DNA of 62,633 bases, counting the filler, from Stramenopiles sp. TOSAG23-6 (lineage: Eukaryota): NCBI GenBank assembly GCA_900128565.1. It is 16 parts of 16 records of this genome, joined end to end, with 100 filler letters (N's around TTAATTAATTAA, not from the genome) between each part and the next. Parts side by side here need not be neighbours in the genome. Positions count along the whole stretch, not along the records: positions 1 to 3,840 come from LT637355.1; 15 more parts are not named here. One strand, given 5' to 3'. Made by a program: the position numbers and the translations under genes. Below, one piece after another: positions 1-62,450 of the stretch. How positions within the stretch are numbered: the first letter of the stretch is position 1; the number at the start of each line of letters is the position of its first letter. The notes beneath the pieces were generated by a model that saw nothing but the letters and a program-made list of their open reading frames with translations, was not told the DNA's origin and made no database searches.

Positions 1-295
1 TTTTTTAGATTTTTTAGATTTTTTAGATTTTTTAGATTTTTTAGATTTTTTAGATGTTTATCATTTTTAATCGTTTTACTATTTTTACTATTTTTACTAT
101 TTCGTGTGGTAGGGTTAGGGTTTGATCCATTGTCAAAATTATATGGACCATTTTTTATTCGATTTTTATTACTCTGTAAAAGTCGATTACAGTTACTTAA
201 ATTCACTTCACGCATCTGTGCAAATCGATGTTCAACTCGTTCAAGAGCAAGACGGTCATTTACTAAATGGAAAATATTTTAAAATTTGAAATGGG

Positions 296-327
<32 letters not shown>

Positions 328-1226
328 GGGAAAAAAATTTTGTTTAAAAAAAAAAAAAAATTTTAAAAAAAAAAAAAAAAAAATTTAAATTCATTTTTTT
401 TTTTTTTTTGTGTTTAGGTACAAAATTTCGTATGAAAAAACGAAAAAAAAATTTAAAAAAAAAAAAAAAAAGTAGGGTTAGGGTTAGGGTTAATAGGGTT
501 AGGGGTAGACGAAACACATACATTTTCATGTACCGCATAAGCAAAACAAAAATCACAAACTCGAACGTTCCCATTCCGTCCGATAAGTTTCCCATCGTAC
601 GTTTGTGCGGAACAATTACTACAAAATATTTGACCACAAAATCGACAGTGATGTCTCCGTTTGAACATTGTAAATGGCGTATAACAGCTATGTATTTTGG
701 AAAAATATTTCAAAAAAAAAATTTTTTTCTAAAAAAAAAAATCGTTAGGTACAAAATTTCGTACGAAAAATAAATTCGATTTTTTTTTTACCGGAAAAAA
801 AAAAATAAAACATACATAGCAAACTTTACATGCTTCGTTGGGCATATAAAACTTATCCGTAGTGAGTGCGTTTCTTTGCGATCTTGAAGATTGTTCTGTT
901 TCTTGTGACTTCTTTTGTTGTAATGATAATAATTCATCTTCAAAGTTAATGTATCCTTTTTTTGATGATCCAGGGGATGGAAAAGATGTAATTTTTCTTG
1001 GATCTGTGTCAAGCTTCGGCATCGACATTTTTTTTTTGTTTTTCTTGGTTTGGTCAAGTTTTGGCATGGATTGTGTTGTATTGCTTGGGTTTGTATCTAT
1101 ATCTATGTCACGAATAGGACTTGTATTACGTGAATTGGGTGATTCATTCGTCATGTGATGGGAAGAACGTGTCTCTACAATCGAATTTGTCTTTGACTCT
1201 TTTGGTGTAAAGAATGGTTTCTTCAT
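1..1226 (-). CDS. FYVE zinc-finger protein (FAB1/PIKfyve-like N-terminus), partial; introns 690-815 and 258-521
   Basis: Spliced YMPNEACKVCY|SCYTPFTMFKRRHHCRFCGQIFCSNCS...VRVCDFC contains the FYVE R(R/K)HHCR motif. Confidence 0.85.
690..815 (-). other. Non-canonical GT-AT intron (family member)
   Basis: GTATGTTTTA...GTACCTAAC...CCAAAATACAT. Removal restores the FYVE C-Y-S-C pair; the AG 2 nt further on gives a frameshift. Confidence 0.85.
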
Positions 1227-1686: not shown

Positions 1687-3363
1687 ATGGATTCTATGTC
1701 ATCTGATACGGCTGCAGGTGTTTGTTCAAGGCGTGAAGTTCAACTCTTCAAAGAAGCTTTTCTGCACTGTTCCAATGGCAAGAAATGGTTATCTTTTGAC
1801 TCTTTTGCTTTAGCTGTTGGAATTCCGATTCCACAAAATATATGCAAAACGAGTAATTTTATACATGCTTTATATCGTCTATACTCTGTAGATAGGTTAG
1901 GTCAGAAAATGGACACCACAGGCTTCGTAAAATGTATGGTACAGTTGGCATCAGGCAATAGACAATCCAAAATGAAACTTTTATTTGAGTTAGCCGACGT
2001 GGATAATGATAAACGTGTTCGAGTGAGTGAACTACTTGATCTTATCCGTGGAATGAAAGTATTATTCACATCACTTGATGGCCAAGAAAGTTCTATAGAT
2101 GATGAAATTTTACAAGAAGTAGTTCAAAAACTATTTCTAACATGTCCTAGTGACAAATCAAAATCAACTAATTCAAAAAATAATGGTAACTCAAAAAATA
2201 ATCAAAAAAAAAGTATCACTTTACCTGAATTTCAACGTGCATTATCAGAAAATGATGGTGTTTTAGAAGCAGCTCTTTCATTCAATTCAACATCTTCTGA
2301 TGAATGCTTCTCTACTCTAGACCGAGTTAATGTTTTAAATACAAAAGTAAACGAAATTCTTGAACATTTTTCTAACCCTAACCCTAGGGTTAATCTTGAA
2401 CAATCTTCAGTTAATGCTACAAAATTGACGTCAATCGATACCCCTAACCCTACCATAATAAAACACAATGAAATGAACAGTACAACAACAAATAGTATGA
2501 ATGAAGAGAATTGTCTTCGAGGATTGATATTATCAAAAAGAATTTCATTAGAGTTAAAATCATTACAACATGATTTATATAAAATTTTAGAATATAACCC
2601 TAACCCTAGAAGGAAAAATAACCCTAACCCTAGAAGGAAAAATAACCCTAACCCTAGAAACCCTAGAAGAAAAAAATGGAATTATCTTTGTGATGGAAAT
2701 ATTTTTCAAATGATACCAAAAATTTCTGGAGATTTTGAAGAAATTGAAAATCCAAAATTACGAACATTATACTTACAAGCAGAAAATGAAAGATTACGTG
2801 TACGTTTTTTTTGTCACATTTTTTTTTTTCATAGTAAAATTTTTCATAGTAAAATTTGTACCTAACGAAAAAAAAAAAAAAAAAAAAAAAATTTTTCAAT
2901 TTTTTTTTCATAGTAAAATTTGTACCTAAAAAAAAAAAAAAAAAATTTCTTCAATTTTTTCACAGTACATAAATTAATCAAACAATATGAAAAAAATCAT
3001 ACCATTTATTCAGAAAACCCTAACCCTAATGTAATTCATTCGATGATAAGTCAATATCGTGTTTATAGTACCGAATTAAATCAACAATGTGATATAAATG
3101 ATTATAGTGAAAACACTGATAATTTGTACTTACGACCTTTGCATACGTATGTTCTATTTATATTTTTTTTTTGAGATTTTTTGTATTTTGAAAATTTTTT
3201 TTTTTTTGAGATTTTTTTTTTTTTGAGAATTTTTTTTTTTTTTTAGAATTTTTTTTTTTTTGAATTTTTTTTTCGTACAAAATTTTGTCCCTAACAAAAA
3301 ATTTTAGATTTTTTTTTAATATTTTTCTACAATATAGTATCCTCATCATTCTCCAATGGATGA
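1687..3363 (+). CDS. EF-hand (calcineurin B/recoverin-like) domain protein, partial; introns 2800-2970 (GT-AT) and 3147-3337 (GT-AG)
   Basis: KMKLLFELADVDNDKRVRVSEL EF-hand motif; frame is kept across both introns. Confidence 0.75.
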
Positions 3364-3407
3364 NNNNNNNNNNNNNNNNNNNNNNNNNNNNNNNNNNNNN
3401 NNNNNNN

Positions 3408-3840
3408 TCATCCATTGGAGAATGATGAGGATACTATATTGTAGAAAAATATTAAAAAAAAATCTAAAATTTTTTGTTAGGGACAAAATTTTGTACGAAA
3501 AAAAAATTCAAAAAAAAAAAAATTCTAAAAAAAAAAAAAAATTCTCAAAAAAAAAAAAATCTCAAAAAAAAAAAAATTTTCAAAATACAAAAAATCTCAA
3601 AAAAAAAATATAAATAGAACATACGTATGCAAAGGTCGTAAGTACAAATTATCAGTGTTTTCACTATAATCATTTATATCACATTGTTGATTTAATTCGG
3701 TACTATAAACACGATATTGACTTATCATCGAATGAATTACATTAGGGTTAGGGTTTTCTGAATAAATGGTATGATTTTTTTCATATTGTTTGATTAATTT
3801 ATGTACTGTGAAAAAATTGAAGAAATTTTTTTTTTTTTTT
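3408..3840. repeat. Exact inverted copy of ~2932-3363 across an N gap (scaffolding artefact)
   Basis: Perfect reverse complement on each side of the N run; identical ORFs in both orientations. Confidence 0.85.
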
Positions 3841-11955: not shown

Positions 11956-14082
11956 ATGAATACAAAAGCCATTACATTATCTTTTATCAGTATGATAGTT
12001 GCTGGTAACAGCGCAGAAGATCAATGGTCATGTTGTGACCCTCGACGTCCAGCTAAAGAACGTTGCTGGGACGGGAAAGATTGGTGTGATATAAGTAACC
12101 ACGATTGTTTCCCTGATTGGAAAAAAACTGGAGTCAATTTCCCAAATGGGGAATGGAAAAACATGTATGTTGGAGGTTGCTCGGCGGCTCCATGTTTACT
12201 CAATTCCTCATGTTTTGAGTATGGACCAACAAATTTTGATTTCTTTAAGGGTCAATCAATCAAAACAATACCAAAAGATCTTTTTCATGGACCAGTACAC
12301 GAACATCAGAAGAGTAAGCCTATACATATTAATTTTGGATGGAATAACATATCAAATATCTCTCCAAACACATTTATAAGTGCTAGTCATATTAATGTTA
12401 CGGAGCTTCGTTTAGATAATAATTTAATCAAGGTCTTGGATAAATCAATGTTTACAGGTTTGGATAAGATTCGAACGGTCCTTCTTCAACATAACAAAAT
12501 TGATACTATACATACTGGAGCTTTTTCAACCATTGGAAAAGATGGTGGTTTATACCGAATTGATCTTGGATTCAACAAACTAAAAGAGATAAATTCATCA
12601 ATGCTATCAGGAATTTCACAAATACAGGATATTTATTTCAACGATAATTTAATTACAAACATTGGAAAAAAATCTTTTTCAAATTTTAAAACACCAAACT
12701 CATATGTGGTTTATAACAATCACCATTATCCAGCAGGTAATTATCATCCACCAACTGCGGCAAATTACTACCACAGTCATGATCACTACCATAATCATGA
12801 ACATGATTATTATAATCATAATCATTGTGCTGATAAAAACGCTAAAACCGTATACACACCAATGTTGAATGTTGCCTTGAATGGAAATAAATTGACACAT
12901 TTTAATGCTGATATGATCCAACTTCATGCAGATAACCAACAAAAGATCAATCTTGAACTAGACAATAATCCTCTTGAAGAAATAAATGCAAATACATGGT
13001 CAGGTTTGACTAAGAAATTGAGATCCTTACGATTGGGTGCTCACCCTAAAATTACAACATTGACACCAGAAACGTTTGTTGGACTTGAAGAACTTGATCA
13101 TTTGTCATTTGTTGAAAATGGAGGATTATACACTCACAATATGAATGTTGATAATCATGGATTGTATACAAATAACTGCATTGAAAGTGTGACTGATATT
13201 TTGCCTGGTACATTCAAAGCAATGAAGAAACTTCAAAGTCTGCTTCTTAGTGTTGATAAATTGACGACTATGCGAAAAGGAATGTTTCAAGGTTTAGAAC
13301 AGCTCNNNNNNNNNNNNNNNNNNNNNNNNNNNNNAAAATTAAGCCATTTAAATCGAATTGAAATCGGTGCGTTTGATGGTATAAAGTCTCACGTTGCATT
13401 GTCACTACCTACTGGTGCGAATAGTATGATTAGTACTTATCATTTTTCTTATGATCCGGCTTATCTTAATAATCCGGCTTATCTTAATAATTACCTAAAA
13501 ATTACATGTACACCTGGCTTTGAACCTGATCAAAATCAAAGACCAAGATCAACAAATGTATGCGAAGCTAGTACGAGACCTCTTGTCCTTGCCGTTGCTG
13601 AAGAAATACGAAATAATTTTCAGCAGCATCAACAAGGCAATCAACAACATCCCGTACATGGTAATAAACTAGACCAACAGTTGCAAGATATTACAAATCT
13701 TTTGCATACTAATATTGAAAAAAAACGCAAGGATTTTCATACAAATGAACGTAAATTTACTCTACAACTAGCAGCTGTTTGTGGTGGAGTATCTTTATTT
13801 ATATCACTTATAGTCGTGATAAGTTTTTGGGGAATGACACGATCAAAAAAAAGAGTGAAAATTACTAGGCATATTGTTAATAATGCAGGACATAATTTAG
13901 CTGCTATTGAACCTTGTCAAGGTCAGGCAGAATTAATTCAAAAAAGAGAAAACTCAAATGATATAGTGTTAGGGGTAGGTCAATTAAAAATGGGAGTAGT
14001 TAATTCATTAGGCATACAACAAAATCGTGCTGGTTTTATCGTAGGACCAATCGGAAAATCGGATGACTTTATACCCGTATAA
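11956..14082 (+). CDS. Type I membrane leucine-rich-repeat protein
   Basis: Signal peptide, many LxxLxLxxNxI repeats, His-rich insert, TM LAAVCGGVSLFISLIVVISFW. Confidence 0.85.
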   Translation: MNTKAITLSFISMIVAGNSAEDQWSCCDPRRPAKERCWDGKDWCDISNHDCFPDWKKTGVNFPNGEWKNMYVGGCSAAPCLLNSSCFEYGPTNFDFFKGQSIKTIPKDLFHGPVHEHQKSKPIHINFGWNNISNISPNTFISASHINVTELRLDNNLIKVLDKSMFTGLDKIRTVLLQHNKIDTIHTGAFSTIGKDGGLYRIDLGFNKLKEINSSMLSGISQIQDIYFNDNLITNIGKKSFSNFKTPNSYVVYNNHHYPAGNYHPPTAANYYHSHDHYHNHEHDYYNHNHCADKNAKTVYTPMLNVALNGNKLTHFNADMIQLHADNQQKINLELDNNPLEEINANTWSGLTKKLRSLRLGAHPKITTLTPETFVGLEELDHLSFVENGGLYTHNMNVDNHGLYTNNCIESVTDILPGTFKAMKKLQSLLLSVDKLTTMRKGMFQGLEQLXXXXXXXXXXKLSHLNRIEIGAFDGIKSHVALSLPTGANSMISTYHFSYDPAYLNNPAYLNNYLKITCTPGFEPDQNQRPRSTNVCEASTRPLVLAVAEEIRNNFQQHQQGNQQHPVHGNKLDQQLQDITNLLHTNIEKKRKDFHTNERKFTLQLAAVCGGVSLFISLIVVISFWGMTRSKKRVKITRHIVNNAGHNLAAIEPCQGQAELIQKRENSNDIVLGVGQLKMGVVNSLGIQQNRAGFIVGPIGKSDDFIPV

Positions 14083-15102: not shown

Positions 15103-15322
15103 TTTGATGAAAGGATTATTTTATTCTGAAGAAGAAAAACTCTCTCTCTCCATCATCCAAATTCGAAAAGGTCTTTCTTTGTAACGAAGAAGAAGACTGA
15201 TGACTTAGGGTTAGGGTTTATTATGGACTTCGAAAAATATAGCTAGTACCGGTAGTCGTCGTTCCGGGTTCTGGAACTTACTACCTTCATCTTCTTTGTA
15301 TCACGACCACGGATGGATAATA

Positions 15323-15854: not shown

Positions 15855-17401
15855 CTGCTCCATTTGTACTTGACAATTTTGATAAATGTCCCGCAGTTTC
15901 TTCTAAATTCAAAGCATCAATTCCATATTTTTGTAAAGTTGTCTGAAATCCTTGTTTTGCTTCTTCGATTTCAGATTTTGATAATATATCTGGAATGACT
16001 AAAACACCATCTCGTTTGAATGTATTAATTTGTTCAATTGTGAGAAATCGTAAATTTTTTTTTTTCGTTACATTAGGGTTAGGGTTTATTTTTTTTTTCA
16101 AATTGTTCGTTACATTAGGGTTAGGGTTTATTTTTTTTTTCAAATTCTTCGTTAAAATCTCGATTTTTTTATGAATATCAGGTAAAGGTATAGAAATATC
16201 ATCATTTGTTTGTGTAGTAGGGTTAGGGTTATATTCAATATTTTTAGTTTTTAAATTTTTAGTTTTTAAATTTTTAGTTTTTAAATTTTTAGTTTTTTCT
16301 TGAAGTTTTAAAAGTCGTTTTTGTCGTCTAAATTCTTTTAATGGTAATCTTGTAGTACCTAAAGAAGATTTCGTGTGTAGTTCCTTTGAACGACTAGGGT
16401 TAGGGTTATTTTTTTTTGAACTATAGTTTGTATTTTCATGTTTTAAAATGTCATTTAATACTCTCAATATTTCTGCATTTGGTTCATTCTTTCCATTATA
16501 TCTGGAATGAACAAATAATATCTCTGAAGAATTAGGGTTAGGGTTTTGAATATTTGTAAGAACGTTTCGGAATCGAATCAACGTAAATGCATTTTTATCT
16601 CTTCCAAACATTTGACATGTATTGTAAAAAAAATTAAATTCGAAATCGGTTAGGTACAAAATTTCGTACGAAAAAAAATAAATTTGAAATTCATAATGAA
16701 AACGTACTTCATAATGAAAACGTACGAGATTCTTCTAGAAAATTTGCATTTTTATATACTATATTGTACAAGAATATTTCAAATTTGAAATTGGTTTAGT
16801 AAACACATCAAAAAATAAAAAAATAATATCAAAAAATATATGATTTGTATAAAGTATGGAGAAAAAAATATATGAAAAAATGAGACATACACTCATGGGC
16901 AGGAATCATCATACCTAAAGAGTCCAAGACAATGTCATCATAATTGTTAGCACTACAAAAATTGATCACTATGCGTAACAAACGCTTTGCTATACCTTGT
17001 CGTCTATATGACCGTTTTACACACATATGTTTAAGCTCTGCTGTACTTTGGACTTGTTTTTCTTGAACTTGTCTATTTGCGTTTGGGGGGTTTTGTTTCA
17101 TTACCGCACAACAACCGATAATCACTTCACCATCCGACTCATTTACGACAGCAACCCAAAATGAATTACAAGATACATCAATAAATCGACGTATTACTGT
17201 AGAAGCAGATGCAAGGTCAAGTTTTAGCTGTCTTTTTACGAATTTTATTATTGAAGTGTTACCGTCACTAATGTCTAACATTGATTTTGCAAATAGTTCC
17301 CGTACGCCAACGATATCCTCAATAGCAAAAGGACGAAACGAAACGGGTACAGAATTATCGCATATACCATTCGCTGGACTATTTTCTTTTGAAACTATCA
17401 T
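15855..17401 (-). CDS. GNAT acetyltransferase joined to a PhyH-like dioxygenase N-terminus, partial; introns 16759-16890 (GT-AG) and 16617-16725 (GT-AT)
   Basis: AELKHMCV..YRRQGIAKRL, spliced AHELYKNANF; downstream FLTIEQINTFKRDGVLVIPDILS. Confidence 0.7.
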
Positions 17402-17701: not shown

Positions 17702-19583
17702 ATGGGAAACACAAAAACACTTTTTAAAGTTATAGTAATTGCAGTACTTGCAATATCACCAACTATAGGGTTGAGAAGGACGGCAATGTCTTTGAATTTA
17801 GATGATGGCAGTGAAGTAACAGCACCAGAAGCAGTACGGGCAGTAATAACAGAAGCAGACGCAAAAGCTGCTGCTGATAAAGTAACCGCTGATAAAGCTG
17901 CTGCTGATAAAGCTGCTGCTGAAAACGCAGGCATCTTAGGAAGAATTAAAAAACTTGATACGAAGATTGACGATGATAGTGGTGCGTATGACAACTACAT
18001 TCGCAACGGGAGCCTTCTTGGTGATCTGCTTCATGATATAATGATGTCCTCAATAGATGAGAAGCAAAAGCCGGCGCTCCGTAAGGAGCTGAACCTGTTG
18101 CCAGGGGAACTTCTGAAGAAAAGACATGATTTTCTCAAAAATCAAAAAGAAATATTCCGTAAGAACTTTGAGGCGCTAATTAAAGCACTGAAGAACGAAT
18201 TGGAGAATAAGGCTACCAAAGACAGTGTTAGTTCATCATCTCCTAGTGGTGGTGGTGGAGATAGTGGAGATAGTGGTGGTGGAGATAGCGGTGGTGGAGA
18301 TAGTGGAGATAGTGGTGGTGGGGATAGTGGTGGTGGAGATAGTGGAGATAGTGATGGTGGAGATAGCGGTGGTGGAGATAGTGGTCCAGGAACAAGTGGT
18401 AATTCATCATCTAGTGATGGTTCAGGATCTNGTGGTAGTTCAGGACCAAGTGATGGTTCAGGATCTGGTGGTGGTTCAAGACCAAGTGATAATTCATCAT
18501 TTAGTGGTGGTCCAGAAACAAGGTTCAGCGAGGACAATCTGAAGGAGCCTGGAGTGGTTACTGAGCAAGAGACGACAAAGGAGAGCCTTATAAGTGAACT
18601 AGCTATGCCATTTACAAACGAGACAGACGAGGAGCTAAAGCATATCTTGGTGAAAGTGATGTCTGATGAAATAACGTATGTTTCTTTTGCAGAATCGTTG
18701 GACAACTGGGGGAAAACACATACTCACACAAATCCTGAGCAGGCGAAGTTGCTTTTGAAGCAATTACATAGCTTTATTACTGACCTGACTGATCTGAATA
18801 AGTCAAGTGGTGTCAATAGTGAGGAGAAAAAGGACCTCGAGAGTCGCGCGGTTACACTGAAGAACAATGTGGAAAAGCATCTTTCTGAAATAAAAAGTGC
18901 GAATGCCGCTAAAGAAGCTCAAAATGGGACAATCAAAACAGATCCTGTAAAACCGTCACCTAAAGAGTGTGAAACATTTTTAAACATTATACAACAGAGT
19001 GTTGATGAAACTGGTGCAAAGCATTTCGAGGGAAATCCCAATCTTATTCACTGTGGTGAAGACGGGAAACCTGAAAAAAATCCACTTGTAGTTGCTGCTA
19101 GAAATGGACGTACAAGTGTAGTTAAACTGCTTCTTAATTTTGGAAAGCTTCTTGATCATGCAAACGGTAGCATTGTTTTTACGGATCAGATCGAAAAAGA
19201 AGCACTTCAAGCTGCAAATGACGCACTTCAAGCTGCAGAGGATGCAGAACATAGAAGTGTAGCTCAAGAACTGGAAAACTCATTATCACCAATGGAATGT
19301 CAAATATTCATGATAATTATAGAAAAAATCACTTGCTATGGCTTTAGGGACATTCTTAAAAAACACCCCCTTCTTAAAGATTGTCTTGATGAAAACCATA
19401 ATTCAATAATAGCAAAAGCAGAAGCAAAGGTAGAAGCGGAAGCAAAAGCAAAGGCAGAAGCGGAAGCAAAAGCAAAGGCGGAAGCGGAAGCAAAAGCAAA
19501 GGCAGAAGCGGAAGCAAAAGCAAAGGCAGAAGCCGAAGCGGAAGCAAATGCAAAAGCAAAGGCAGCAGTACGCATTCAAGCTA
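17702..19583 (+). CDS. Secreted low-complexity protein with GGDS repeats, an ankyrin-like repeat and AEAKAK repeats, partial
   Basis: Signal peptide; [19 protein letters not shown]; tandem DNA repeats at 18245-18385 and 19410-19565. Confidence 0.7.
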
Positions 19584-39300: not shown

Positions 39301-40810
39301 GCATGTATTTTTGGAAAATATTTAAAAAAAAAAAAAAAAAATGTTAGGTACAAAATTTACTAAAAAAAAAAAAAAAAAAAAAAATTGAAATTCGAAATTC
39401 GAAATTGAAAACGAACAGAATGGATGGCAATTTCTTCCAATTTTTTATGTATTTTTTCTTTATATTTCTTTACAACACGAAATCTCTCCTTTTCATTGAG
39501 TGTGTTGATTTCGTGCCATTCTTTTTTTTCCTTCCAACGTTGTGCTTTTTCTTGTGCCACATGTATTGTTAAAAAAAAAAACATTAAATTTTACTAAAAA
39601 AAAAATCGTTAGGTACGAAATTTCGTATGAAAAAAAAAAAAAAAAAAAAAAAAACCCTAACCCTAATGATGTGAAAACGCACATTCATTTTCTTTTTTAA
39701 TATATCTTTTTTTTGTATTTCTACTAATTCATCATCAACTAATTGTCGGCGTAATAAAATACTAGAATGTGAAATATCAGAACTGACAGTTTTGTGCCTA
39801 TTCAAAATTAAATTTCGAATTATTTTTCTCAATTTCGAATTTTGAATTTTTTTAATCTTTGTATGAATTGAACCCAAATCATTACGTAATCTATTATTCA
39901 ATATAGTTTTTTGTAAAGGATGAGCATATAATCTATCATGTGTTGAGGAGAATGGTGTGGTTGATAACAAAGTTGAAATTTCAATATTTTCTCTTGAAGA
40001 ATTTTCATTTTTTTTTGTAAATTTTTGTACATTTTGTACATTTTTTTTTTTCATTTTTTTGATTTTTTTTTCATGTTGTTGAACACGAAATCGTGCAATA
40101 CTAGACTCTTGTCTCAATTGCTTAGTAATAGCTTCACGAGGAACATTTGTATGTACAGTTGGACACGTTGATAAATGTACACTTTTCATTACTTTACTTT
40201 TATTCGGTCCAATATCAGCTATTAGATGTTCATGTAAAGAATTGTTTTGTGTTAGGGTTAGGGTTTCATTAATTTCAGAATCAGAGACATCAAGTCTTGT
40301 AAGTGGTCGATATGTTGAAATATTATCAATGTATTGTGTATTTTGTGTATTTTGTGTATTTTGTGTATTTGTATACATGTCATTATTGTGTATGGTATCA
40401 GTTGTATATGAAGTTGTTGGTACTGTGTAATTTGTATATACTTCACGGTCATTATTTGTAGTATTTTGGTAAGGATCATTACTATTTTCTTCATCAAGGT
40501 ACAACTGACTTTTTCGACTATATCTTGATGTTATCGGAGTTAATGGACCAAAATCTCTAGTATATGATGTTTCATTACGACCATAATTTGGAGATGTCGT
40601 GGATAATGATACAGTATCAGCGTTATCGGAGTGACTGTCTCTTATTTTCTGTGGACTTTTCTGTTGACTGATTCGATCCAATAGACCACTAGATTTCATC
40701 TGTTTCAAAAGCTTTCTTTGTTTTTGTGCCTCTATCAATTTGACATTGGTCAATGTCTGAGCATACACTTTATCTTTCCAAATATTTCGACTGTTCTTTG
40801 TGGTAGGCAT
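39301..40810 (-). CDS. Unknown coiled-coil/low-complexity protein, partial; introns 39561-39682 and 39303-39417
   Basis: Long ORF continues in frame after the GT-AT intron. Confidence 0.6.
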
Positions 40811-41210
40811 TTGCAGTTAGGGTTAGGTCATCCAGTGATGGATAGATACAGCTAGGATTGATATATATATATAGTACCTGTACCAAAATGTACCAAAATA
40901 TAGAAAAAAAAAAAAAAAAAAAAAAAAACCCAATATTTTTTTTGTGTGTAACTGTTTTTTCACTTTGGTACAAATATTTGTATATAAAAAATGGAAAAAG
41001 AGATCCAGTGCGCCCTAACCCTAGTAGTACTCTGTTGTACCATGTGTGAGTGTAGAAAGAATACGCAAAGAAAAAATATTTTTCATCAAACAACAAACGT
41101 TTACAATTTTACTTTGAGTCAACGAGTAGTACTACAAGAAAATCACAAACAACCTCTTTATCCATAGAGCCATAGAGTAGTTATTGTGTATTTTCATTGA
41201 TCGGTTGAAC

Positions 41211-43907: not shown

Positions 43908-44860
43908 ATGGAAATGTTATCTTCAGCGCAAGATAATGGTGGGGTAGAGCCTCATTTAAAGTCTCATTCTGAAAAGTATGAGATATTTATTAGTAATCCA
44001 GACTTTAAATTCAATGCAGCGCACTTTATAGCTTACAAAGGATATCGAGAACGTCTACATGGCCACAATTATCGTGTATCTGTTCGAGTTAAAGGGCGAC
44101 TTGGTTCAGATGGATATGTTGTTGACTTTGGGGATATTAAAAAGTCAACGAGACGAATCTGTAAAAGTTTAAACGAGGTATTTATTTGTCCTACTTTAAG
44201 TGATTGTTTGAATATAACTCATGTGAATAGTGTAGACGGTAAAGCTGGAAATATTGATATAGAATGTGAAGATGGTGCGCGATTTAGTTTCCCATTTGGT
44301 GATTGTGCCATGCTACCTATTGCCCATACTTCATGCGAAGAGCTAGCGAAATATGTGTGTTTTCAGGATCAATTTTAAATTTATTTATTTTTCGTACGAA
44401 ATTTTGTACCTAACAAAAAAAACAAAAAAAAAGAAAATATTTTCCCAAAATACATGTGTGTAATGTCATACTTGAAGATATGAAAATTTCCGAGTTACAA
44501 TCCCGTGGAGTTTCTTCTTTCGAAGTCGGTGTCGCAGAGCGTAAGAATCAAATGGCACTATACGCTGTTGATATATTACCAAAAGTGTCTCAAAATAATT
44601 TGGTTCCACCTAATCTCAAAATGTCTGATTTGAATCTGTCTGATAGAGAATCCAATCTCAAAATGTCTGTTTTGAATCAAGTTAGTCCTGGAATGATTAC
44701 TACTATTTGTGATGAAAGTGATGATAAAAATATTGATGATGATAAAAATATTGATGATGATAAAAATATTGATGATGATAAAAATATTTATGATGATAAA
44801 AATATTGTTGTAAGCGATGGTAATGAATCAAACGATACAAGTAGTAGCAGTGAAATATAG
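43908..44860 (+). CDS. 6-pyruvoyl-tetrahydropterin synthase / QueD family; GT-AT intron 44355-44455
   Basis: FNAAHF, ERLHGHNY, VVDFGDIK, EELAKY|V, EVGVAE. Confidence 0.9.
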
Positions 44861-45069: not shown

Positions 45070-46738
45070 CTATACCCATTCTTTTGGTTTACCTTGAAGT
45101 AAATCCAATGTTTTTTTTTCTGGACTATCCAACTCAGGAATATTTTTATACTCATAACGGACAGTAAGTGGAAGTGACATTAATACTGCTTCAATATCAA
45201 CACCAGGTACATGTATTTTGAAAAAATATTTCAAAAAAAAATTTGAAAAAATTGTTAGGTACAAAATTTCGTACGAAAAAAAANAAAAAAATTCGNAANT
45301 NAAAAAAAAATAAAACATACAGCATATCCAAATTTCGTACCTCGATCATATACCAAGTTAAATTCAACATACCGACCATGCCTTAATGCTTGCCATTCTT
45401 TTTCTTTAGTAGTGTATGGCATATTCATTCGTTTTAATAAAATAGGCCAATAACAAGGAACAAAAGCTTTTACACAATCTTGTACAAACGATAAAGATGA
45501 TGATTGTAGAGTTTGTTCATTTGGTGTAAGTAGTGTGAAACGATATTTTAAATTCGAAATTCGTTAGGTACAAAATTTCGTACGAAAAAAAAATAAATTT
45601 GAAATTCATGATGGAAACGTACAATTCTACTAGAATCATCTCGATGTGAAAGAAACGAAAGTGCACTATTTACTTTTTCATTATTTGTATTATTATTTAC
45701 TTTTTCATTATTTGTATTATTATTTGTTGTAACTGTATTCGTTTGTGATTTATATTGGTGAATATTCGTGAAATCGTCAAAAAATATTCCTCCAATGCCT
45801 CTCGCTTCTGCTCTTGCTTTGTTATAAAAATGTATTTTGGAAAAATATTTCAAAAAAAATTCAAAAAAAATTGTTAGGTACAAAATTTTGTAAGAAAAAA
45901 AAAAAAAATTAAAACATACATATGTATCACAATCAGTTTTCATTATTGAGTATCGACTTTTAGTACTATTGTCATTTTTATCATGTTTATCACAGACATT
46001 TTTTAACGTTTTATGAAAATGTTTTGCATCGTCTTCAAATAAATAAATCGGAGTTAAATCAGTTCCTCCTCCAAACCACCAAGAAACAACTTCATCATCA
46101 TCATCTGTTATTTCAAAATATCTATAATTAAAATGTACAGTGGGTGCCATTGGATTGACTGGATGTAATATCCCACTTAACCCACACACCCACATTTGTA
46201 AATTAGGGTCACTTTCATGGCTAGGTTGTGTATTACAAGTTTGCTCTTTCTTTTCTACCTTTTTATCCATTTTTCGCTTTTGAAGTTTTTCGCGCAACTG
46301 AGGATGATTTGCAGACATTTGTCGAATAATTGCTGGTGTAAGTGAGCGTGTCATGACTGTGAGACCAACTCCAGCTTTTTCAAAAACTCGACCATCTTGT
46401 AAAACTGCAGTTAACTTGAGAGCTCGTTTAGACGATTTATCACGGCGCCATGTTACAATTTTCGTATCATCTGGAGCAGCAATAGACGCAGCTTTATCTT
46501 CTAATGAAGCAACACGATTGCATATATCGTGCTGTACCTGTACTAGTGTATTAATCATGGCTCTACGTGTGCTATTATTTCGAGATAAGTCGTTGCCTCC
46601 AAGAAAGTCTGACAATGTTGACGTATCGTCAGGGAGTGCAGGCGCACTACAACTACAATTGTCTGAATATTGACTTGTTGCATATATAGAGACGCCAGCA
46701 ATAGCTGACGATGCAAATAACATACATCTTGAAGTCAT
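45070..46738 (-). CDS. CPOX: Oxygen-dependent coproporphyrinogen III oxidase (divergent); introns 45830-45919 (GT-AT), 45528-45622 (GT-TT), 45211-45320 (GT-AT)
   Basis: [63 protein letters not shown]. Confidence 0.9.
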
Positions 46739-47184
46739 CGCTGGTGTATTGTGTTTCACTTTTTGGTGGTTGTAGAATAGTAGATATCGAAAGTTATATC
46801 ATATAATATGTTTCTTTTGGCTAAGAGCGAAGCGTCCAGAAGTACTAGGGACTTTCCACTAGAGATTTTTTTTTTCTTTGTAGCCCTAACCCTAGGCTTG
46901 TCGTTTTGTGGTACCCGGTTCCATCGGTTCGCTCGCAATATTTGAATTTGCAAAAAGGTGAACAGTGAGCAGTGAGCGAAATAGTGAACATTGAGCGAAA
47001 AATGGATAAAAAGGTAGANNNNNNNNNNNNNNNNNNNNNNNNNNNNNNNNNNNNNNNNNNNNTTAATTAATTAANNNNNNNNNNNNNNNNNNNNNNNNNN
47101 NNNNNNNNNNNNNNNNNNGTTAGGTACAAAATTTCGTATGAAAAATAAATTCGATTTTTTTGTTAAAAAAAAAAATAAAACGTA

Positions 47185-49396: not shown

Positions 49397-50814
49397 GTTG
49401 TTGCTGTAATGAGTTTCTTAACTAGATGCCAATGCCCTCGTGAACAATATGAAATACTTTCCGTGATTCTGAAAACAATTCATCCCAATAACCCTAACCC
49501 TAGTGTACGTTTCGTTTTTTCCATACGAATTTTTATAATTTTTATAATTTTTTTTTTTTTTTTATTTTTTTTAAAATTTTTTTTTTTAATTTATTTTTTT
49601 TTATTGTCAGAAAATTTCGTACCTCACAACAAATTTATAATCATCAGAGCTTTTGAAATATTTTCCTACAATACAAAATAATAAACAAAATAATACTCAA
49701 AAACAAAAAATGTCTACGCCTAATTTAAGTGATTCATCTATATGCAATCATAAACTACTTCGACTATGTAAAAGTTTAGTTGGTGTGATTTGTACAATTC
49801 AAGATAAGCAAACTCATGCACGTTTTCAAAATTGAATTTCAAATTTATCTTTTTTTTTTTATAGTAAATTCTGTACCTAACGAATTTTGACTACATTTTT
49901 TTTTTCACAATATAGGAGAGAATTCAAATGGATGAAATGAATATTCGAAATAGATTGTCTTCAATGGATCTTTTATTTTCTTCTCAACCTGTGCAAATAC
50001 GTGATTCTAACCCTAACCCTACGTCTCTTTATAATAAAAACGACTCAAATATGAAAAATAATAATTCAAAAATGAAATATGATTTACATATATCAAGTAA
50101 TATATTACATGTGAAAAATAATTCAAATAATTCAACTGATACGTCTACTATAAAGAATAATGTATGTTTTATTTTTTTTTATTTACCGAAAAAAAAAAAT
50201 CGATTTTTTTTTTTTTTTTCATAGTAAATTTCATACCTAACAAATCTTTAATTTTTTTTTTTGAAATATTTTTACAAAATACATGTAAGTGGTATCGACA
50301 TTTTACTGTTTTTATTGAAATCACCTGCTGCAGAAGTTAGACATATGTATGTTTTATTTTTTTTTTTTTGTATGAATTTTTTTTTTTTGGTTTCGTACGA
50401 AATTTTGTACCTAACAATTTTTTTAGAATTTTTTTTGAAATATTTTTTCACAATACATGAAAAGTCTTAAACAATCCAAAGAATTAAGTCTTGCATTACT
50501 TAAAAAGAAACAAAATGATGATGCAATATCAAGTGGCCATACTACAGAAGGTTTTGAAAAAGCAAAAGAAGGGTTGCAGAAACAAGTTGAAAAACTTCAA
50601 CAAGAAAATAATAAAAGAGAGGCTGCAGATTTTCAAAAATTACAAAAGTCTCAAGAAATGTTAAAAAATGAATTACAAACACGAAATCAAATTCTGGGAC
50701 AACTACATCAATTATCTGCATCATTAAACAAATTACATTATAGACAAGCAGCAAAAGAAGTAAGCTGGACATTGTCTAAAGGTGAGCATCATTTTACAGA
50801 AGGAGAGGATCCAT
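49397..50814 (+). CDS. Exons of one or two unrelated soluble proteins (possibly BEACH-protein-like and coiled-coil)
   Basis: Short in-frame exons separated by family introns 49505-49676, 49818-49915, 50162-50284, 50347-50458; not transporter-like. Confidence 0.45.
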
Positions 50815-51024: not shown

Positions 51025-52138
51025 CATGAAAAAGATGGTCACGATCATAAACATGAAAAAGATGGTCACGATCATAAACATGAAAAAGATGGTCACGATC
51101 ATAAACATGAAAAAGATGGTCACGATCATAAACATGATCATAAAAAATCGGAGAGTCATTCCCATACAACTCATAAGCACAAACATCATAAGCATGTCCA
51201 ACGGCATGATGCGTTAGTAACGTCTGTTGGATTCGTTGAAGAAGGTAAACTTGATTTTGACGTGTTAAATCATTGGATCACTGAATTTTTACTTTTAAAT
51301 GGAATAGAAAAAATATTTCGTTTAAAAGGATGTTTAGATATTGAAGGTGAAGATAACGTGTTTGTGTTACAAGGCGTTCACCAAGTATGGAATATGTCTC
51401 CATTCGGTAAATGGCCTGAGAATACAAAACGAAAGAGTAAAATTATTTTTATAGGTAAAGGTCTTGATAAAGAAGAAATAAAACTTGGTTTCAAAGGTTG
51501 TGTAATTGGCACTGATGAGCACAAAATTGCTCGTGAACAGCTGGAAGAATTGTGGGACAATGAAGAAGAGGAAAGACAACGTCAATTGAAATTTGATCAA
51601 GAAAATACAGAATATGACGTCACTATTCATAATGGACAAAATGGGTTAGGTTTACTCCTAAAACAAGAAGTTAGTGTCCAAGGATTCCCTGAAGTTCGTG
51701 TTGCTGGTTTTCGTCCACTCGCCAAAGGCCTTGTCAATAATGTACGTTTAATTTTTTTGAAAATTCTAATTTTTTTTTATAGTAAATTTTGTACCTAACA
51801 TTTTTTTTAGATTTTTTTTGAAATATTTTTCCAAAATACATGCTCGTATGTCAAACAAAATTGCACCAGGAGATATTCTTATTGCAATCAATGGATCATC
51901 TGTACGTGGGCTTCCACTTATTCCAAATGTTGTATCTTTATTAAGACAATTTCCTCGTGGTGAAGGTTCCATGGGTGCGATGATCACACTTACGTTTCGT
52001 ATGGGTGATTCCAATTATATGCCATTAGCTCAAGTGCAAGGCTTAAATAATGTCCCAAACCCTAACCCTAATAATAAACGAAATCGGGTAGAAAATGATG
52101 CTGCTCCAGCACCTAAAAGACAGCGTAGTGCTGCGTAA
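51025..52138 (+). CDS. CobW/COG0523 C-terminal domain + PDZ, with His-rich 27-bp repeats; GT-AT intron 51742-51841; 5' partial
   Basis: IFRLKG.L, FVLQGVH, SKIIFIGKGLD; GLGL..., KIAPGDILIAING. Confidence 0.85.
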
Positions 52139-53728: not shown

Positions 53729-54117
53729 GATAAATGTGTCTCAAAAGAATAATACCAGTACGAAAAAGGTTCTTCTTCTCGGTGTCTCTCTTGAAGGCAT
53801 CGTCTTTTTTGATCTAGATCCATCAAGATATAGATTTGACAGCAATAGTATTGTACGAAAAATTCGTACCAAAAATGACCTTTTGGTTTGTAGCAATATT
53901 TCGTACCTAATGTTTAAGTATCAAAATTTCATACGAATCCAATGCGCAAAAAAAATGTTCGTAGTGTATTAAAGTAGTCATTCATAATCTTGGATAATTG
54001 TTGTATTAAAATAGTCTTTCATATAATCTTGGATATTATAAGATGATTAAATGAAGTTTTTAAACTTTTTATTTTGTGATTAAAAATGAAAATGTTTAGT
54101 AGGGTTAGGGTTGAAAT

Positions 54118-60492: not shown

Positions 60493-62450
60493 TCAAGAAT
60501 AATCTCTCTCTGGAATCTCCCATGTATTGTGAACAAAAAAACACGAAATCATGAAAAAAAACATTAGGTATGAAATTTTGGTACAAAAAAATAAAATTTG
60601 AAATTGAAAACGTACATGCAATCTCCCCTGTATCTGAATGTTTATAAATGTATTCATCACTGATTTCATCTTTTTGTTTGATCCATTTTTCTCTTTCCAG
60701 TTGCATAAGAAATTTTCTACTGTACTTAAAAAAATATTTCAAAAAAAATCATTAGGTACAAAATTTCGTATGAAAAAAACAACTAAATTTGAAATTGAAA
60801 AAAAAATAAAACAAACACTTCTGCAGTTTTTTGACGATGTTTTTCAACTTGATTTGTTCTTTTATATAAACGTATGAGTGGTGAAAAATATTTTTTTTTA
60901 GTAAAAAGAAAGTTGTTAGGTATGGAATTTAAAAAAAAAAAATTCATTAGGTACGAAATTTTGTATGAAAAAAAAATTAAATTCCAAATTCAATATTGAA
61001 TACGTACAAACGGACATTTTTCATATATTGTGTATATCCTTTCCATTGATTAAAAATTCTCATGACACTTTGATTAGCCATGTAATTTTGGAAATAAATA
61101 TATATTTTTTTTAGGGTTTGTTAGTTCTTTAAATTTCATGATACACAAAAAAAAAATTTTAAAAAATATATTTTTCTTAGGTACAAAATTTCGTACTAAA
61201 AAAAGAAAATTAAAAAAACTACAAAAAAATTTAAAAAAAGTTTAAAAAAAAATTAAAAAAAAATGTTTAGGTACAAAATTTCGTACCAAAAAAAAAACGT
61301 ACATACGCCATATAGTTTGTCGTAATATTTTATACTCTCTATCAATTCGTTGTTTTTCTTTTGTTACAAATTTTTGTACATATTTATGTTGTTCAGCTAA
61401 AATTAAAGTTTTAATTAAATGTTTATATTTTTTGGATGCTTTTTCTATTGTAATTAAATTAGTGTTAGGTTGATATGTTGTTGTTGTAGGTGTATTCTTA
61501 TTTTTATCTACAGAATTAAAGTACGAAGAAGATTCGCTAGGGTTAGGGTTCTCGAGAAGAATTTTATCCCATACAATATTTGATTGTTGTTGTTCAAATT
61601 CATTCATTTTTAATTCTACTTCATATTTTGGATGTTTTCGATTCTCATTTTCTTGATTTTGTTTTTTTTGTAACAAATCTAATATTGTATCAAATTTATT
61701 CTGTTGTTTGATGGTTAATTCTGAAATACCTTTTTTTATATTTCGTGTTTTAATTTTTTCAATTTTTGTAATTGTTTTATTTTTCAATTTTTCAATTTTT
61801 GCAATTTTTTTATCAATATTTTTTGAATGTTTTCTAATTTTTAATTCAATTTTTTTCTTTTTTTTTTCACGTAGCGCATCTGAATTTTGTTTTTCTTTTT
61901 TTTTTTCATTCATCACTTTTTCAAATTCTTCATTTTGTAACCGTTGAATTAATTCAGCAGTTGCTTTTTTTTCTGCTTTTTCGTGTAATAAAAGAAGCGC
62001 TTTTTTTGTCTTGATGGCTGTCCCTGTATTTCAAAGTAAATATGTACAATTTGAATTTTGTTAGGTGTGTATGTATGATATAAAAAAAAATATAATTTTT
62101 AATAATAATAATAATGATAAAGTTGAATAATAATTTGAAAAAAAAAAAAAAAAAAATTTTAAAATTCAAAAAATAAATTAAAAATTGGAAAAAAAATTAA
62201 AAAACGTACAAGCTTTTGTTTCCGCATTGACAAGATTTTGTTTTGCTTTTTCTCTATATTCCTTGGATAATTTTGCTTCTTTCATTGTAGTGACTGTAGC
62301 AAGTTTCATTTTGACTAGATCTGCATTTCTTCGACACATAAAATATTCATTTGGTGGCTCGCAGACAGTACGGGTACCCGGTTCACTTTTATTTATACAT
62401 TCACATTTATGAAATAATATATTTTCTGCATTCCATTTTATTATATACAT
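60493..62450 (-). CDS. Coiled-coil protein with C-terminal WW-like domain; introns 62023-62209 (AG), 61080-61302 (AT), 60874-61007 (AT), 60720-60816 (AG), 60522-60615 (AT)
   Basis: Six exons in one frame; spliced WIKQKD...YIYKHSDTGEIA|WEIP. Confidence 0.75.

Follow-up and report, generated by a model that had tools for sequence, protein, structure and literature searches.

A telomere-type word of two repeat units, CCCTAACCCT, recurs in exons, introns and intergenic DNA of Stramenopiles sp. TOSAG23-6, and its copies are held to one spelling at the nucleotide level even where they are translated, mostly as Asn-Pro-Asn-Pro (NPNP). We examined it in a stretch of 62,633 nucleotides, filler included, that joins 16 parts of 16 records of assembly GCA_900128565.1 end to end (hereafter the window). 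The window is AT-rich (26–35% G+C in 5-kb steps) and gene-dense, with short introns and Asn-rich proteins. The original prediction, made from the sequence alone, had counted about 30 such tracts where under one was expected by chance. Indeed, we found 32 copies of CCCTAACCCT on the two strands together, against a mean of 0.02 and a maximum of 1 in 100 dinucleotide-preserving shuffles, and the interval singled out at the time (2373-3030) contains six of them (2376, 2442, 2598, 2622, 2646 and 3018). The next base is A in all 32 matches, which makes the invariant core an 11-mer, CCCTAACCCTA (TAGGGTTAGGG on the opposite strand); AA usually stands directly before the core, and the 13-mer AACCCTAACCCTA is perfect in 26 copies.

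The size of the word is as constrained as its spelling. Defining a tract as a stretch in perfect (CCCTAA)n telomere register, we obtained 33 tracts, of which 31 measure 11–17 nt (mode 14), one in an intron measures 20 nt and one is a single unit of 9 nt; there are no arrays of telomere units among them, and this is not the variable length, typically of at least four units, expected from break repair. Single CCCTAA units are not enriched, since only 17 of the 64 hexamers in the window lie outside tracts and 15.3 would be expected overall. Two-unit runs, in contrast, are far commoner for AACCCT (32) than for any other hexamer (8 for the runner-up), and among pairs of the form CCC-N3-CCC the linker is TAA in 32 of 34, with 0–4 pairs for each of the other CCC spacings. 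The enriched object is therefore the telomere word at a fixed two-unit size rather than C-rich sequence in general, and because TAA alone is enriched as linker we could rule out a general C-patch signal of the poly-C-binding-protein type. Decayed copies are scarce: four one-mismatch versions of the core stand against the 32 perfect ones, and as two of the four merely overlap perfect sites, the independent ones number two (at 13964 and 40818). Together with the fixed size and the lead of AACCCT over other hexamers, this is not the pattern of a microsatellite. The scarcity means either purifying selection on every base, synonymous ones included, or that all copies are young.

Some copies had to be merged or set aside before loci could be counted. 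The tract at 3742-3755 mirrors that at 3016-3029 within a perfect 455-nt palindrome (2931-3840) that has no spacer and an N run at its centre and is probably an amplification, assembly or scaffolding chimera; being a palindromic mirror copy, it was left out. The same palindrome cuts off the EF-hand-like gene model and doubles one telomere tract. Four extra copies are units of perfect tandem repeats (24, 42 and 24 nt), and the two intron tracts in 473-504 were taken as one locus. After these corrections there are 26 loci, 25 with a perfect core plus the imperfect 12-nt copy at 40816-40827, which amounts to 26 loci in 60 kb, about one per 2.4 kb or about 430 per Mb, and tracts occur in about 13 of the roughly 30 genes in the window. 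Perfect or near-perfect in-frame tandem repeats are numerous inside open reading frames (ORFs) of the window in any case (115 rows, e.g. 51025-51137, 44719-44807 and 19416-19557), among them 4.2 copies of a 27-nt unit, which encode a His/Asp/Lys-rich stretch ahead of the CobW_C domain; as such repeats are common, the three that carry tracts show no special instability.

Most of the loci are translated, as had been predicted. Nineteen of the 26 lie in long ORFs, with the C-strand as sense in every one, and of these 18 read xPNP (the first residue being N in 16, T in one and S in one) and one reads Thr-Leu-Thr-Leu (TLTL), this last being the tract at 40251 for which that reading had been proposed. 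Codon choice was assessed in 50 ORFs that do not overlap and have 120 codons or more (14,337 codons), where Asn is encoded by AAT 956 times (81%) and by AAC 221 times and Pro by CCT in 233 of 549 cases. Against this background 16 of 17 NPNP peptides are spelled AACCCTAACCCT, one of 64 possible spellings, which independent codon choice predicts in about 0.6% of cases, so the claim that the tracts use AAC although Asn is otherwise mostly AAT holds. NPNP itself is seen 17 times, where residue frequencies in the same ORFs predict about 0.14. The preference belongs to the tract and not to the dipeptide: AACCCT is used in 37 of 72 NP pairs, 32 of these 37 fall within 16 NPNP, and the remaining single NP pairs use it in 5 of 40, near the 8% expected. 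The original prediction had exposed itself to the finding that NP dipeptides use synonymous codons at background rates; in the window single pairs do and tract pairs do not, and it survives this test. T or S is accepted as first residue while the nucleotide core stays intact, whereas a peptide motif would leave synonymous choice free, and the tracts show one spelling in 16 of 17 cases, a TLTL reading and non-coding copies. These last lie in introns and near gene starts, where they had been placed. Codon choice, the invariant A, the tolerance of T and S, the TLTL copy, the non-coding copies and the TAA linker thus put the constraint on the DNA or RNA word, with the peptide secondary, in agreement with the earlier claim that the motif acts at the nucleotide level.

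Given the C-strand as sense, the choice of frame needs no special cause. We weighted the frames by window codon usage with the tracts masked; two of the six are excluded by stop codons, and the expected shares of the others are 57% for xPNP, 32% for GLG, 7.5% for RVR and 3.7% for TLT. The observed 18:1 fits the codon-weighted ratio of about 15:1.

The tracts are also present in other samples. Two small DNA runs hold 0.93–0.94 of the sampled words and may be the source sample; the seawater runs hold small shares. Contigs of X1, of X3 (seawater DNA) and of X4 and X5 (both poly(A) RNA) were aligned to 27539-31361, where bases uncovered in X3–X5 carry no weight. One X4 contig (record 21, 29254-29703) covers three tracts and aligns gap-free with 12 differences; the 10 that are listed all lie outside the tracts, and the other two, unlisted, near the contig ends. 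The tract at 29360-29373 is also covered by an X5 contig (record 28), and that at 29881-29894 by a second X4 contig (record 22). An X3 contig (record 12, 30236-30729) shows 10 substitutions, lacks one 24-nt repeat unit (at 30644) and carries an extra TTAGGG behind 30573, which makes AACCCTAATCCA a perfect two-unit tract, followed by AATCCA. In all, five of five covered window loci keep the tract in strains 2–3% divergent; at six places where other samples provide cover, the tract is never missing, and a one-unit difference is seen at one of them. The lack of substitutions within tracts is not significant, as only about 1–2 would be expected at this divergence. The X3 differences at 30573 and 30644 represent unit-number polymorphism in wild populations of the organism or a near relative. 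The organism's occurrence in data sets of seawater DNA and of poly(A) RNA makes tests at the population level feasible without culture.

We tentatively favour the reading that a telomere-repeat-binding factor uses the tracts as a cis-element of fixed size, for which NPNP is the cheapest coding frame. The two-unit tract with its core CCCTAACCCTA would then be a sequence-specific cis-element maintained at the nucleotide level, whether in exons, in introns or between genes. With two TAGGG half-sites at a distance of 6 nt, it would fit the footprint of one telomere-repeat-binding factor, and our preferred candidate for its reader is a Myb-type double-strand binder of the telo-box-reading kind; paired TAGGG half-sites would be covered by a two-domain telomere-type binder or a dimer (TRF, Tbf1, Teb1, plant TRB). 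Such a factor might mark or organise chromatin or transcription along genes. In exons the element would persist only in the least costly frame, AAC-CCT-AAC-CCT-A, within Asn-rich low-complexity stretches, which would make the NPNP peptides a by-product. The fixed two-unit size, the invariance and the spread over compartments fit a binding site better than a scar. From this pattern we infer binding by a factor, DNA rather than RNA as the target, and the effect of binding.

Several points weigh against this. No Myb-type telomere-repeat-binding gene was seen among the genes of the window, and TTAGGG is only the presumed telomere unit of the organism. A single window, taken from the assembly of one uncultured cell, need not represent the genome. 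The conservation evidence, coming from strains 2–3% divergent, is weak, and the few decayed copies could also mean young copies. Known telo-boxes are depleted in coding sequence, according to passages of PMC3022908. Finally, the C-strand sense of all 19 exonic loci is more simply explained by an element read in the transcript.

It is possible, if unlikely, that reading of the word takes place on the transcript or while transcription is under way. The sense strand CCCUAACCCUA would be bound by a C-strand-specific single-strand or RNA-binding protein, or would pair with G-rich telomeric RNA, and would affect splicing, stability or translation. This reading accounts best for the sense bias. For an orientation-free DNA site, the absence of G-strand-sense copies among 19 exonic loci has P = 7e-5 under window codon weights; if the weights are taken from the 20–80 codons flanking each site, xPNP rises to 80–85% and P to 0.04–0.07, a test that is partly circular because the flanks are picked by the survival of C-strand copies. 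A sense-strand preference of the exonic tracts is thus likely but not proven. Among transcribed non-coding loci, 473-504, 54100 and the imperfect copy before an ATG are likewise sense and one is antisense. The tracts are also gap-free in the poly(A) RNA contigs, and three of the 26 loci (49489-49505, 473-504 and 39653-39666) are no more than 20 nt away from the 5' end of an intron, against about 0.7 expected from the share of sequence this near to the roughly 41 introns, an estimate based on small numbers. On the other hand, the intron tract at 39653 and the tract at 46884 point the opposite way, density in exons is no greater than between genes, no RNA family was matched (Rfam and tRNA scans of the window gave no matches) and the contigs are silent on RNA strand and level. 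We know of no CCCUAA-dimer element in mRNA, and none was found in our literature searches.

We regard as unlikely a third account, in which the tracts have no cellular function and a mutational or drive process (telomerase, telomere-templated repair at breaks, or unit slippage) leaves copies that accumulate where they are tolerated. The X3 contig, with exactly one TTAGGG more than the window at 30573 and one 24-nt unit fewer, means that gain or loss of units is ongoing; three loci have been multiplied through perfect tandem duplication, and the copies sit in low-complexity Asn-rich stretches where insertions are cheap. There is a mammalian precedent in short interstitial telomeric repeats, inserted at breaks and variable in unit number according to the portion of PMC7215372 consulted. 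However, in-frame inserts of one or three units would be equally tolerable, yet single units are no commoner than chance predicts and three units are reached in only one tract, and there is no build-up of decayed copies, even at synonymous positions. Density argues in the same direction. The ORF set, an approximate partition that takes in some intron read-through, makes up 72.8% of non-N bases and holds 73% of the loci (19 of 26), so that ORFs are as dense in tracts as the remainder, whereas random landing followed by survival in one of six frames would leave far fewer there (31% expected, P = 1e-5). With an ORF share so far above 31%, the exonic copies are not mere rare survivors of random insertion. 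The original prediction had offered three mechanisms: a site for a TRF-like protein and an exonic RNA signal both remain as candidates and are not separated by these data, while telomerase-healed scars fit worst, given the fixed two-unit length, the lack of arrays and the equal density inside and outside ORFs.

It is very improbable that NPNP is a functional short peptide motif of disordered regions that owes its spelling to recent copying: the excess of NPNP over prediction and the clustering of copies, five or six per gene in three genes as in multivalent motifs, speak for it, but the single spelling in 16 of 17 cases, the A that always follows, the TLTL copy, the six or seven non-coding loci and the acceptance of T or S with the core intact all speak against it. 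An artefact of single-cell amplification, assembly or contamination, to which only the palindromic duplicate at 3742-3755 lends colour, is scarcely credible, because contigs from other samples and other years (one run of seawater DNA, two of poly(A) RNA) contain the same tracts, which refutes it for the loci that X3–X5 cover, and because the tracts are in frame within long ORFs.

A bolder version of the argument would see in the tracts a genome-wide, transcription-oriented code, in which a factor or G-rich RNA that reads chromosome ends also reads CCCTAACCCTA in gene bodies or transcripts. We consider this decidedly unlikely, but if it were true then telomere state would be coupled to gene expression and coding sequence would have been bent to spell Asn-Pro-Asn-Pro. 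Short telomere-like words have been known in two forms, promoter elements and repair scars, both of them rare in coding sequence; here an exact two-unit word is equally dense in and out of exons, overrides codon preference and leaves a recurrent tetrapeptide in unrelated proteins. Should the pattern hold genome-wide, it would show clearly, in a eukaryote, how a signal at the nucleotide level can shape protein sequence, and would open a route to asking what telomere-repeat readers do away from chromosome ends.

The individual tracts are listed in the table below.

Table. Telomere-type tracts of the window, by position and strand; exon and intron boundaries are approximate.
Position	Strand	Feature
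110-122	-	NPNP tract, exon downstream of FYVE exon
473-504	-	Intron locus: 20-nt tract 473-492 and 11-nt tract 494-504; 13 nt past GTATGT intron 5' end; C-strand sense
2372-2386	+	NPNP tract, EF-hand-like gene
2442-2452	+	Core only, TPNP
2595-2656	+	Three tracts (2595-2608, 2619-2632, 2643-2656) in a perfect 24-nt tandem repeat; one locus
3016-3029	+	NPNP tract, 46 nt past intron 2800-2970
3742-3755	-	Mirror copy of 3016-3029; not a counted locus
15205-15218	-	Intergenic tract flanked by divergent genes; about 100 nt ahead of the ATG of a minus-strand LRR gene
16073-16128	-	NPNP tracts 16073-16086 and 16115-16128; 42-nt tandem repeat; one locus
16218-16231	-	NPNP tract
16395-16408	-	NPNP tract
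16532-16545	-	NPNP tract
29360-29373	-	NPNP tract, Asn-rich 854-aa ORF; intact in X4 and X5 RNA contigs
29608-29623	-	NPNP tract; intact in X4 RNA contig
29674-29690	-	17-nt tract, PNPNPN; intact in X4 RNA contig
29881-29894	-	NPNP tract; covered by X4 RNA contig
30569-30582	-	Single unit, AACCCTAATCCA; the sole NPNP not spelled as tract
30651-30687	-	SPNP tracts 30651-30663 and 30675-30687; 24-nt tandem repeat; one locus; one unit fewer in X3
39653-39666	+	Intron tract in minus-strand gene, 17 nt past GTGCGT 5' end; only transcribed copy with G-strand as sense
40251-40265	-	TLTL tract, 410-aa ORF
40816-40827	-	Imperfect 12-nt tract with a single core mismatch; 5 nt ahead of the ATG of the 40251-40265 gene
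41013-41023	+	Core only, intergenic, 187 nt upstream of the ATG of a TFIIB-like gene
46884-46894	+	Core only, between genes; about 146 nt ahead of the ATG for coproporphyrinogen oxidase; runs opposite to that gene
49489-49502	+	NPNP tract, amino-acid-transporter gene; ends 3 nt ahead of GTACGT intron start
50007-50021	+	NPNP tract, ORF 49916-50224, upstream of CobW_C exon
52058-52071	+	NPNP tract, 22 codons ahead of stop, ORF with weak PDZ match
54100-54112	-	Tract a few nt past the stop of a minus-strand ORF; probable 3' untranslated region; C-strand sense
61538-61550	-	NPNP tract, 262-aa Lys/Glu-rich ORF

The host genes are unrelated to one another. Some of the domain labels first given to them were borne out by Pfam matches (FYVE, GNAT and CobW_C, to which we add Aa_trans, further host proteins being without a match); the EF-hand and PDZ matches are weak and below the Pfam cut-offs, and for PhyH and WW there was no Pfam match. 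A comparison of the six-tract EF-hand-like protein with 2780 candidates 202–646 residues long gave no relative at E <= 0.001. A protein-guided scan with a WRAP73-like exon matched 74 stretches, none of which was confirmed. The closest protein matches are metagenome proteins (63% and 52% identity), while named matches reach at most 48% and are a mixture of animals, fungi, algae and other protists; with named matches so weak and so mixed, we left the lineage unplaced.

The introns of the window are stereotyped AT-rich elements in which the word TTTGTACCTAA is found 41 times. They start with GTAYGTTTT, continue with an inner near-palindrome, CGTACGAAATTT(T/C)GTAC, and then CTAAC, and end in ..CCAAAATACAT (examples are 27989-28158, 28651-28765, about 45845-45919 and 2800-2970). 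The ends of four introns could be pinned down, two by joints in RNA contigs, one by the reading frame and one by an enzyme motif that we take to be conserved; none of the four has GT-AG ends, and GT..AT is the sole pair of ends that fits all of them. Their appearance suggests a family of mobile, intron-generating elements whose 3' end is non-canonical. Over intron elements (27667-28818 and 31251-31361) the summed contig depth in X1 exceeds that of unique exon bins by 4–5 orders of magnitude, and it is likewise high in the runs of seawater DNA and of RNA; judging from this depth, the element is massively repeated and the lineage or its relatives occur in those samples. An exact 22-nt word of the stereotyped intron was found in 0 metagenome contigs. 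The tract and the conserved intron word GTACCTAAC have CCTAAC in common, but a branch-point-like role of the tract has no support, as single CCCTAA units are at chance level. We also considered a link to hemistasiid diplonemids, whose non-canonical introns, according to extracts from PMC12621601, have no conserved ends and favour C and G at the 5' site. That lead was dropped, their introns being unlike those of the window, and with it the idea of a base-J mark, a base that the excerpted text of PMC10161547 gives as known from Euglenozoa alone.

We searched the literature on coding telomere repeats and on NPNP in connection with telomeres and found nothing describing this pattern, most subscription journals being outside the search. 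Several known systems share parts of it. Fungal factors of the Tbf1/Teb1/Tay1 type bind internal TTAGGG pairs through two Myb domains, at sites that are promoter or subtelomeric and not known to be exonic. The internal paired TTAGGG is the trait shared with our tracts, which are mostly exonic. Tbf1 has been described as acting at interstitial human-type repeats (PMC9272169, in part). Vertebrate interstitial telomeric loci are break insertions of at least four units and variable length, 229 of them in the human genome, as stated in sections of PMC7215372. They share with the tracts the internal TTAGGG and the unit-number polymorphism (here a one-unit indel), but differ from 26 loci in 60 kb that are nearly all exactly two units long and mostly exonic and in frame. 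In Eimeria, an extract from the genome report (PMC4199364) describes dispersed telomere-like repeats and a tolerance of repeats in more than half of the genes, the coding repeats being almost always CAG-based and the telomere-like ones lying outside coding regions. In the window, unlike Eimeria, it is the telomere repeat itself that is coding, and it does so without expansion.

Bacterial uptake signal sequences are words of 10–12 nt that are exact, dense and located mainly in genes, in frames that encode tolerated peptides. The resemblance to our tracts is one of analogy only, since those words are prokaryotic and driven by DNA uptake, and to our knowledge no word mechanism of the DNA-uptake type exists in eukaryotes. 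Plant telo-boxes (AAACCCTA, with Myb-type readers) come closer: they too are short and exact, comprise one to two telomere units, are dispersed over genes and act at the nucleotide level. A telomerase-based origin has been proposed for them (passages of PMC3022908 and PMC10167121). In Arabidopsis and rice, as far as the portion of PMC3022908 goes, they are enriched in 5' untranslated regions, with 74.9 per Mb in coding sequence against 155 genome-wide. Our tracts show no such 5' enrichment and coding depletion, with 19 of 26 loci in ORFs, and differ further in an ORF density equal to that elsewhere, in their strict two-repeat unit and in that most copies are translated. The tracts of the window would best be classed as a variant of short interstitial telomere motifs, with the plant telo-boxes as their nearest kind.

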